From a virus: 57,842 nucleotides of DNA. Positions 56,869 to 57,759 of the stretch are shown in pieces. The stretch spans positions 1-57,842 of the IMG/VR virus record IMGVR_UViG_3300038856_000076; one strand, 5' to 3'. The notes under the pieces were generated by a model that did not search any database, was not told the origin of the DNA, and saw only the letters and a list, made by a program, of their open reading frames with translations. Each line of letters begins with the position of its first letter. Positions within the stretch are counted from its first letter, which is position 1. A program made the translations under genes and the position numbers.

Positions 56869-56942
56869 CTGCGCCCACGGAATCTCTGACCGCGTTCAGG
56901 GAAACTGAAAATTGCCGCGTGTAAAATTGGCGGCGACTTCTC

Positions 56943-56970
56943 ATGGTCACGAAATCTGTTTCGTGACCAT
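56943..56970. promoter_or_regulatory. perfect 12-bp inverted repeat hairpin
   Basis: atggtcacgaaa-tctg-tttcgtgaccat. It is flanked by the direct repeats GACCGCGTTCAGGGAA (56888-56903) and GACCGCGTTCACAGGAA (57082-57098). Confidence 0.5.
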
Positions 56971-56992
56971 CAATCTAACCCACCCCCGATCT

Positions 56993-57058
56993 CGTTTCGA
57001 CGTTTCGACGAGTCGAGAGTCACCGTTTCGAGAGTCACCGTTTCGAGAGTCAGGGTGG
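56993..57058. repeat. tandem direct repeats (cgtttcga x2; gagagtcaccgtttc x2.5)
   Basis: Read directly from the sequence. They generate repeat-artifact ORFs on both strands. Confidence 0.8.
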
Positions 57059-57248
57059 TTATCTAACCGGACACTCTGTCCGACCGCGTTCACAGGAATG
57101 ATTCCTAGCCGTGCGTAGACGAAAGGGCTAGCCAATCGACACACGCGGCACACCCGTTGCAAATCCTACAATTGACCCACCCGCTACAATCCGCACGACC
57201 GGCACAACCCGCCACTCGTTACACCCCACCCGATCCGAGTATTCGTCA

Positions 57249-57640
57249 CCACCCGACTCTTCGATACAATCATCATAATTACACGCCTCTTCGAGTCGGG
57301 TGGTATAATCGTTAGAATCCTCATAGACGATACACCCCTCATATTCAGTATAGATGATATAATCGGAACCTCGCCGACGCAGGGTTCCGATTATACGGGT
57401 GGTAGTATCTATCCCCTCTGAAGCGTATATGCGCTATACTCCGGGTGGCTCGCCCGAATCGGTAAAACCGATTCGGGTGGTCGCATTAGTGGGTCGGATT
57501 ATAGGCGCTAGGCGACTTAGGCGGTACAGTTTGATTGTACAAAGTGGGTGTTTTGTATCACCCGGCCGCGTTGTAGAGGTTGTATCGACGAGTCGGGTGG
57601 TGGGTATTATGACCGATTTGAACGATTTTTGGTCTGGGGT
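57249..57640. promoter_or_regulatory. cluster of GAGTCGGGTGGT motifs (both orientations), several followed by TATAAT/TAGTAT-like extended -10 elements, plus hairpins
   Basis: ACCACCCGACTC at 57249 is the inverted copy. GAGTCGGGTGGT-ATAAT lies at 57289. CGGGTGGTAGTAT lies at 57386. CGGGTGGT lies at 57472. GAGTCGGGTGGTGGGTATTAT lies at 57590. Hairpins are aatcggaacc…ggttccgatt (57361-57392) and cccgaatcgg-taaaa-ccgattcggg (57453-57477). A related GGGGTGGTCAATGAT sits at ~168-182, upstream of the primase gene. Confidence 0.4.
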
Positions 57641-57759
57641 GGTGGTAACTATTGTAGCGATTCCGCCCATCGGGTGGCATTAAAAGGATCATAGAGGTTA
57701 CCTAGATTCGGGCGATTGTGCTAGTAAATCCAATTGTACAAGGTAGTTCCCTATATCTA

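Follow-up and report, generated by a model that had tools for sequence, protein, structure and literature searches.

A possible iteron-type replication origin in the largest gene-free region of an uncultivated Planctomycetota phage

A clustered short repeat changes orientation around A+T-rich DNA

The 57,842-nt virus record IMGVR_UViG_3300038856_000076 of IMG/VR (positions 1 to 57,842, hereafter the window) derives from an uncultivated Planctomycetota phage and ends in the largest gene-free stretch of that phage, a region in which no gene was called and no open reading frame (ORF) was found. Copies of a short repeat, CGGGTGGT, crowd this region in opposed orientations around A+T-rich DNA. We tentatively propose that it is an iteron-type replication origin, with promoters attached, that serves the phage's own self-loading superfamily 3 (SF3) primase-helicase; this is the best-supported of the five readings that we weighed, and we infer all of its functional steps. 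A preliminary description of the same DNA had seen in it a control hub of promoters or protein-binding sites that possibly included the replication origin. A dense non-coding control region with credible promoter elements is indeed present, and the suggested origin role is the one that ranks first here, while the notion that the recurrent 12-mer forms a promoter family did not hold up.

Exact-protein look-ups placed the window as an internal piece of ENA contig ERZ27291567:k141_81811 (129,510 bp), which extends 0.66 kb past the window end. Window positions 56717-57842 are 100% identical over 1,126 bp to this independent assembly, and the earlier worry that the region might be an assembly artefact can therefore be set aside. 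The sole difference between the two assemblies is one 72-bp repeat-spacer unit of an adjacent array of clustered regularly interspaced short palindromic repeats (CRISPR).

The hexamer GGGTGG occurs 12 times in 56985-57672 as against 39 times in the other 57 kb, making it about 25-fold denser in the region, and two extra copies just past the window end bring the total to about 14. For CGGGTGG, 10 copies were observed in 1.2 kb where 0.10 are expected (Poisson p ~2e-17), so that the earlier report of at least five motif copies in both orientations is borne out by strong clustering. The 8-mer CGGGTGGT has six copies in 57.8 kb (0.95 expected), five of them within the 354 bp of 57248-57601, and a longer form, GAGTCGGGTGGT, is exact in three copies. 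When the 14 copies were aligned, conservation was limited to (t)CGGGTGGT, a core of 8-9 bp; 3' of GGGTGGT there was no positional conservation, and -10-like hexamers were found at variable distances or not at all. This limited conservation points to a short protein-binding repeat and not to a promoter family, and a core this short would fit iterons, unlike promoters. Outside the cluster, one-mismatch copies number about 22, compared with 15 +/- 4 expected for the whole window. One such copy, GGGGTGGT at 167-174, had been singled out as a related motif upstream of the primase gene and is within chance.

The copies form opposed sets. On the left, four minus-strand copies recovered by motif scan and alignment lie at 56985, 57182, 57231 and 57254 (56980-56985, 57177-57182, 57226-57231 and 57249-57254, the last being a GAGTCGGGTGGT copy). 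They are followed by eight plus-strand copies at 57298-57677. Left of 57275 the plus strand carries a single stray copy, at 57053 (57053-57058), which closes a tandem array. Past the window end, two copies on the minus strand again lie 44 and 117 nt beyond a polypurine tract (tract B). The first orientation switch is made by back-to-back exact 12-mers, ACCACCCGACTC and GAGTCGGGTGGT, around a 33-bp spacer at 57260-57292 that is 64% A+T and, by inverted-repeat and folding analysis, unstructured. The second switch surrounds the 93 nt of the C-less tract itself (57758-57850). Within the plus-strand set, two copies (57443-57448 and 57475-57480) flank and overlap an 11-bp hairpin, the copy in 57590-57610 belongs to a 23-nt inverted match with 57247-57269 (96%), and the last two (57637-57642 and 57672-57677) lie in a G-rich block.

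Two paired polypurine tracts

Paired C-less polypurine tracts are the most unusual feature of the region. Tract B is A+T-rich and is a candidate unwinding element; on the plus strand it runs from 57758 to 57842 in the window and on to 57850 in the ENA contig. It is entered through a 15-bp box, TCCCTATATCTAATA, at 57748-57762 (plus strand). An identical box lies 25-39 nt upstream of window position 1 (L001 9719-9733), where it precedes tract A, a paralogous tract that straddles window position 1 and has its second half at 1-61 (plus strand). Tract A lies between the ParB and primase genes, in the centre of a replication module (DNA polA, ParB, primase, exonuclease). Both the box, nearly identical, and tract A are found in a relative with 76% primase identity; tract A is not kept in relatives with primase identity of 62% or below. 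In a nearest-neighbour stability scan of a 68-kb composite (10 kb upstream, window and tail), tract B was the least stable segment and tract A the second at 50-, 80- and 100-bp windows, with deviations of 4.9 and 3.5 standard deviations from mean stability.

These tracts also bear on how the region relates to the primase gene. Window position 1 is 242 nt upstream of that gene, and the preliminary description had placed the region directly next to it if the genome is circular or circularly permuted. The window is internal to the 129,510-bp contig, with the ParB gene and 21 tRNA genes upstream of its start, and the proposed adjacency is therefore wrong. The real link is the 15-bp box and C-less tract that the ParB-primase intergenic region shares with 57748-57850. 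An attachment-site reading of the two boxes is not supported: a scan of window proteins showed no integrase, and the boxes' similarity continues into the diverged tracts.

Independent assemblies break exactly in these tracts, and a Logan contig and the window both begin inside tract A. Such breaks could reflect strand interruptions or hypervariability rather than low complexity alone. An improbable proposal is that the TCCCTATATCTAATA box with its ~93-nt C-less tract, present twice, constitutes an undescribed kind of initiation site, at which the SF3 primase-helicase would be recruited either by a persistent R-loop, formed by purine-only RNA from the array promoters, or by nicking of the tract.

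The primase-helicase resembles initiators that read short iterons

Besides its DUF5906 primase-helicase, the phage encodes a gpA-type large terminase (TerL), a coat protein like that of P22 and a tape-measure protein. None of 50,697 GenBank phages is a close relative, TerL identity reaching at most 25%. Relatives of the primase-helicase (40-51% identity) come overwhelmingly from Planctomycetota metagenome-assembled genomes and complete chromosomes, including Pirellulales and Thermoguttaceae, and IMG/VR holds many more, some on contigs of 129,143 and 129,439 bp. The AlphaFold model of the protein (predicted local distance difference test, pLDDT, 85) was matched by Foldseek to the NrS-1 helicase region (E 4e-14), monkeypox virus (MPXV) E5, African swine fever virus (ASFV) PrimPol and vaccinia D5, and to two Reps of staphylococcal pathogenicity islands (SaPIs), PriRep of SaPI5 (7ola, E 5e-9) and DNA-bound PriRep1 of SaPI1 (7pds, PriRep1-dsDNA). 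The protein is an SF3 helicase of the D5/SaPI-Rep/NrS-1 kind.

An origin of this type should have at least six short (5-8 bp) repeats clustered in non-coding DNA, and 14 GGGTGG copies are found here. Its repeats should be opposed and flank A+T-rich DNA; in the region, 57260-57292 separates a minus-strand set from a plus-strand set, and the polypurine tract separates the latter from a second minus-strand set. Its element should encode a D5-like SF3 helicase, which by its Foldseek matches the DUF5906 protein is. The SaPI Rep origins are the nearest likeness: they carry 6-12 penta- or hexanucleotide iterons that are read by a C-terminal winged helix, and they have an A+T-rich centre with at least two iterons per side pointing in opposite directions (PMC9371898). 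Shared with them are a very short repeat (5-8 bp) present many times, the two opposed sets around an A+T-rich centre, and an element-encoded D5-like helicase that is a structural relative and whose C-terminal domain is a candidate winged helix. The array here differs in having three sets, two candidate centres, promoters and palindromes.

Two other kinds of origin share parts of this design. At ori and crr of satellite phage P4, an octamer iteron, TGTTCACC, occurs as direct and inverted copies and is read by the C-terminal domain of the alpha primase-helicase. An octamer-type repeat in both orientations, a fused primase-helicase and a second cis site at a distance (here the candidate tracts A and B) are common to P4 and the phage studied here. 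The primase domain of alpha is different, however, and P4, which has no polypurine tract, keeps its sites within 4.5 kb of DNA around the alpha gene. Transcription-activated phage origins are known from the primary origin of T7, oriF and oriG of T4, and ori of the lactococcal phage c2. They likewise have tandem promoters that fire into a non-coding A+T-rich tract, and a purine-rich RNA would hybridise stably with its template; they differ in lacking an iteron array and in using other initiators, and the promoters of the present region are recognised from their sequence.

If the region is an iteron-type origin, it could work as follows. The winged-helix-like C-terminal domain of the primase-helicase would read the 8-mers, and hexamers would load in opposed orientations on the oppositely oriented sets, opening the A+T-rich DNA. 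Rightward extended -10 promoters (57301, 57355, 57400 and ~57602) would transcribe into the purine tract and so aid opening or give an RNA-DNA hybrid. Three palindromes that lack T-runs may be sites for accessory dimeric proteins or extruded hairpins, and tract A, between the ParB and primase genes, may be a second related site. Were this correct, it would supply a testable origin for a widespread and wholly uncultivated lineage of ~129-kb Planctomycetota phages and prophages, would predict CGGGTGGT as the DNA recognition sequence of a D5-like primase-helicase, and would show in a large tailed phage the arrangement familiar from SaPI and P4 satellites, in which opposed iterons surround an A+T-rich centre.

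Several observations weigh against an origin and keep the proposal tentative. The array spans 0.7-1 kb with irregular spacing (23-120 bp) and without helical phasing, and it is not adjacent to the initiator gene: the primase-helicase gene ends at 3083 and the array begins at 56980, 54 kb away, so that only tract A adjoins the gene. SaPI origins, by comparison, are compact and immediately downstream of rep. The region has no DnaA boxes, and on the gene scale it occupies a convergent junction, between plus-strand genes and a minus-strand unit, and not a skew minimum. The winged-helix assignment is weak: when the last 125 residues of the primase-helicase were modelled alone (pLDDT 83), winged-helix domains were indeed the top matches, but with a best E of 0.04 (the RFX DNA-binding domain, probability 0.97). 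No DNA similarity to the region was found in GenBank phages or PLSDB plasmids. Exact and degenerate pattern scans of IMG/VR, metagenomes of the Joint Genome Institute (JGI) and GTDB genomes, run with the CRISPR repeat, the 15-bp box, motif pairs, the central inverted 12-mer pair, and the box followed by a C-less run, returned nothing or chance matches. Anchoring on neighbouring genes was no more productive: the YunG and HAD_SAK_2 proteins are accessory genes without close phage relatives, and the best long contigs were a bacterial chromosome and an unrelated phage. With no homologous region found in relatives, we infer the function from this one region.

Some distant relatives (L139, L143, L134 and L131) do carry lineage-specific arrays beside the primase gene. 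In L139 (2400-2910), three 205-bp units, each with CTCTATA palindromes, lie directly upstream of it, and in L143 (2690-2890) ACTAACT occurs there in both orientations around an A+T-rich stretch. Family-wide, however, repeats are not enriched upstream of the primase gene, the mean maximum 7-mer count being 3.6 as against 3.4 and 3.1 in coding controls. This too speaks against an origin, and the arrays of the relatives accordingly count as weak support only.

Promoter elements and a purely regulatory alternative

The reading that comes second is a regulatory one, in which the 8-mer would be the operator of a phage repressor or activator, placed on or beside tandem rightward extended -10 promoters that make one or more non-coding RNAs. 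We consider it unlikely. Three exact TGnTAnnnT boxes lie on the plus strand where the preliminary description had noted extended -10 look-alikes (TGGTATAAT at 57301, TGATATAAT at 57355 and TGGTAGTAT at 57400), and a near match at 57602 makes four within 310 bp. Three of the four are fused to an 8-mer copy, which overlaps positions -20 to -13 of the box. By pattern match, CGGGTGG runs into TGGTATAAT, a sequence with the family promoter consensus, at 57297-57309 and into TGGTAGTAT at 57396-57408, both on the plus strand; at 57590-57610 (plus strand) a GAGTCGGGTGGT copy is followed by GGGTATTAT, which is -10-like with its TG one position off. The family promoter box, (T/G)GGTATA(G/A)TAT, stands 11 nt before the ATG of the ParB gene and of a gene at 33775, and it is also found upstream of the primase genes of two relatives (L082 and L083). 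The region boxes thus match real gene promoters of the phage family, which makes some promoter activity credible. A plus-strand transcript of 57290-57760 folds better than its shuffles (z = -4.3), and asymmetric operators in both orientations have precedents in phi105 and mycobacteriophage L5.

Other results fit this regulatory reading poorly. At least 10 of the 14 repeat copies have no good -10 at a fixed distance, and the leftward copies have weak -10 candidates only. Judged by its sequence, the region contains candidate promoters, but the 8-mer repeat is not itself one. Downstream of the boxes there is neither an ORF nor a called gene, no Rfam 15 covariance model matched the region at its gathering threshold or at E <= 5, and no plus-strand terminator follows the boxes. 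The fold z-score, moreover, stems mainly from the perfect palindromes.

Two side observations concern other promoter elements. The gene at 33775 and the ParB gene have a common upstream region of ~85 bp that is 73% identical (window 33776-33858; L001 9614-9697), and because TGGTATAGTAT lies only 11 nt before each ATG, both genes probably have mRNAs with almost no leader. A palindromic pair, TGGTATTATTATACCA (window 50883-50898), lies in an intergenic gap of 70 nt and provides an extended -10 box on both strands.

Proximity to contig ends

Somewhat less probable still is a sub-terminal packaging or genome-end region, with the repeats acting as terminase or end-binding sites near the physical end, or a concatemer junction, of a ~129-kb genome. 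Rightward of the last in-window copy the ENA contig has only another 1.8 kb, and 9 of the 11 IMG/VR relatives that reach >50 kb past the primase start end 52.8-63.0 kb downstream of it; here the window ends at 57.6 kb and the ENA contig at 58.3 kb. Two relatives have lengths of 129,143 and 129,439 bp, close to the 129,510 bp here, and the gpA-like TerL belongs to a class with defined ends. T7 and T5 have non-coding, repeat-rich terminal regions; these resemble the present region in being gene-free over ~1-1.5 kb and in combining strong promoters with a mixture of direct and inverted repeats, and the region also lies near the contig ends of its family. They have no sequence similarity to it.

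Much of this evidence can also be read another way. The ENA contig breaks off within tandem 23-bp units that span at least 209 bp, by itself enough to break a k = 141 assembly. The terminase genes lie at a distance of 30 kb, and one of the 129-kb relatives is permuted differently. Since the window and the Logan contig end in low-complexity tracts, the clustering of contig ends can reflect repeats and not physical ends. The ends 53-63 kb past the primase start suggest a conserved assembly-breaking region, or a genome end, just right of the region; most simply, assemblies break here family-wide on non-coding DNA that is repeat-rich or of low complexity. The region and the two polypurine tracts are thus assembly break points in this phage family, which matters for judging genome completeness. 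A doubled genome as an explanation of the 129.5-kb contig was rejected, as gene orders disagree, and a literature search by run accession returned nothing.

The DNA just past the window end has some structure of its own. From 0.26 to 0.72 kb beyond it (L003 11854-12311) lies a minus-strand unit with a promoter (TTGACT-16-TATACT), a 36-aa basic ORF and a terminator with a 12-bp stem. At least seven tandem 23-bp units follow, and there the ENA contig ends.

Unlikely readings: a ParB site, a termination zone or Chi

It is very unlikely that the region is a loading or centromere-like site for the phage's ParB-family protein, with the palindrome, the GTTTCG repeats or the 8-mers as its sites. A protein with ParB_N and HTH_ParB domains is encoded beside the primase gene and kept in relatives, and the region does hold a unique perfect palindrome with adjoining direct repeats. 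On the other hand, no canonical 16-bp parS occurs in it within 3 mismatches, the palindrome is single-copy, the asymmetric and irregularly spaced 8-mer is unlike known ParB sites, and the neighbour of the ParB gene has no ParA-type Pfam domain match.

We give equally little credence to a termination or insulation zone, or to decayed repeats without specific function, in which oppositely skewed C-rich blocks would serve for Rho loading from either side. C-rich, G-poor stretches of the plus strand lie at 57150-57300 and 57850-58100, and the minus strand is C-rich at 57450-57700; the GC skew is about -0.5 in the block at 57177-57254, C-rich on the plus strand, and +0.35 to +0.4 in the G-rich block at 57637-57677. 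The region also lies between a plus-strand early cluster with the CRISPR array and the minus-strand unit with its own terminator. This skew arises from the motif copies themselves, however, and the exact 12-mers, the 23-nt 96% inverted match and the three perfect 11-13 bp palindromes argue for sequence-specific constraint or very recent duplication, not composition. Chi-like sites are only remotely conceivable, as 14 copies in 1 kb with one elsewhere is unlike a Chi distribution.

Palindromes, direct repeats and tandem repeats

The window has six perfect hairpins with 10 bp or more, and three of them are in this region. The 12-bp inverted repeat reported earlier, ATGGTCACGAAA-tctg-TTTCGTGACCAT (56943-56954 and 56959-56970, with a 4-nt loop), was recovered unchanged by the inverted-repeat scan. 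As single-stranded DNA it has a folding energy of -12.6 kcal/mol (z = -7.9), it has no second copy in the window or in L001, and it is a candidate dimeric protein site or cruciform. The other two hairpins of the preliminary description are likewise perfect and of equal or slightly greater length: one of 13 bp at 57358-57395, overlapped by the TGATATAAT extended -10 box at 57355-57363, and one of 11 bp at 57453-57477. None of the three has a T-run on either strand, whereas the three hairpins elsewhere in the window are canonical minus-strand terminators with T-runs; a scan of the region for intrinsic terminators (G+C-rich stem and T-run) was also negative. From their sequence, the three look like protein sites or extrudable structures, not terminators. 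No tracrRNA-type anti-repeat was present among the reported inverted repeats of the region.

The palindrome and the tandem repeats are bracketed by a direct repeat, GACCGCGTTCA, at 56888-56898 and 57082-57092 (plus strand). These are the flanking repeats noted before; they are exact and the only two copies in the window, although only marginally beyond chance, and a partial CCGCGTT occurs at 57566. The tandem repeats at 56993-57058 had been taken for a single 15-bp series. Their span was right, but Tandem Repeats Finder (TRF) resolved two plus-strand arrays, CGTTTCGA at 56993-57010 (period 8, 2.2 copies) and TCGAGAGTCACCGTT at 57013-57052 (period 15, 2.7 copies, 100%). GTTTCG(A/T) occurs five times in 56958-57048.

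Other features of the phage

The mini-CRISPR array adjoining the region occupies 56572-56869 and consists of a 36-nt repeat, GTTGCAGTGGCTGCTCAGTGCCTCATAAACTGAGAC, with 36-37-nt spacers and one truncated unit; its first repeat overlaps the end of a YunG-like ORF. In the ENA assembly of this phage the array is shorter by one repeat-spacer unit. Searches of the IMG/VR and GTDB collections did not recover the repeat core, and a scan of window proteins showed no cas gene. A solitary 3' hairpin half of the repeat, AGTGCCTCATAAACTGAGAC, lies on the minus strand 3.1 kb upstream of the window start (L001 ~6600-6640), between two tRNA-Leu genes and ~15 nt before one of them, and may be a tRNA-linked solo crRNA-like unit. 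All 21 tRNA genes are on the minus strand (L001 1177-7157) and are followed by the ParB-family gene (8596-9606).

Several proteins encoded in the window deserve mention. An 819-aa protein (42221-44680, plus strand) combines major-vault-protein shoulder (PF11978, 1.7e-25) and repeat (PF17795) domains, which is unusual for a phage. The genes at 3218-3907, 37281-37856 and 37856-38404 encode, respectively, a MazZ-like dATP/dGTP diphosphohydrolase domain fused to NUMOD4, a nucleoside 2-deoxyribosyltransferase and a peptide deformylase, and together they hint at nucleotide-pool or DNA-base modification. Three paralogues (39-46% identical; 39224-39976, 49500-50330 and 51269-52108, plus strand), for which no relatives were found in IMG/VR, share a conserved PSHVDEG..RHWHVD motif as well as a core of the Rieske-like form CxH...CxxH. 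A 178-aa ORF without a family match, immediately before the large terminase gene, is a candidate small terminase and holds a 12-nt tandem repeat of ~10 copies (27853-27975, minus strand).

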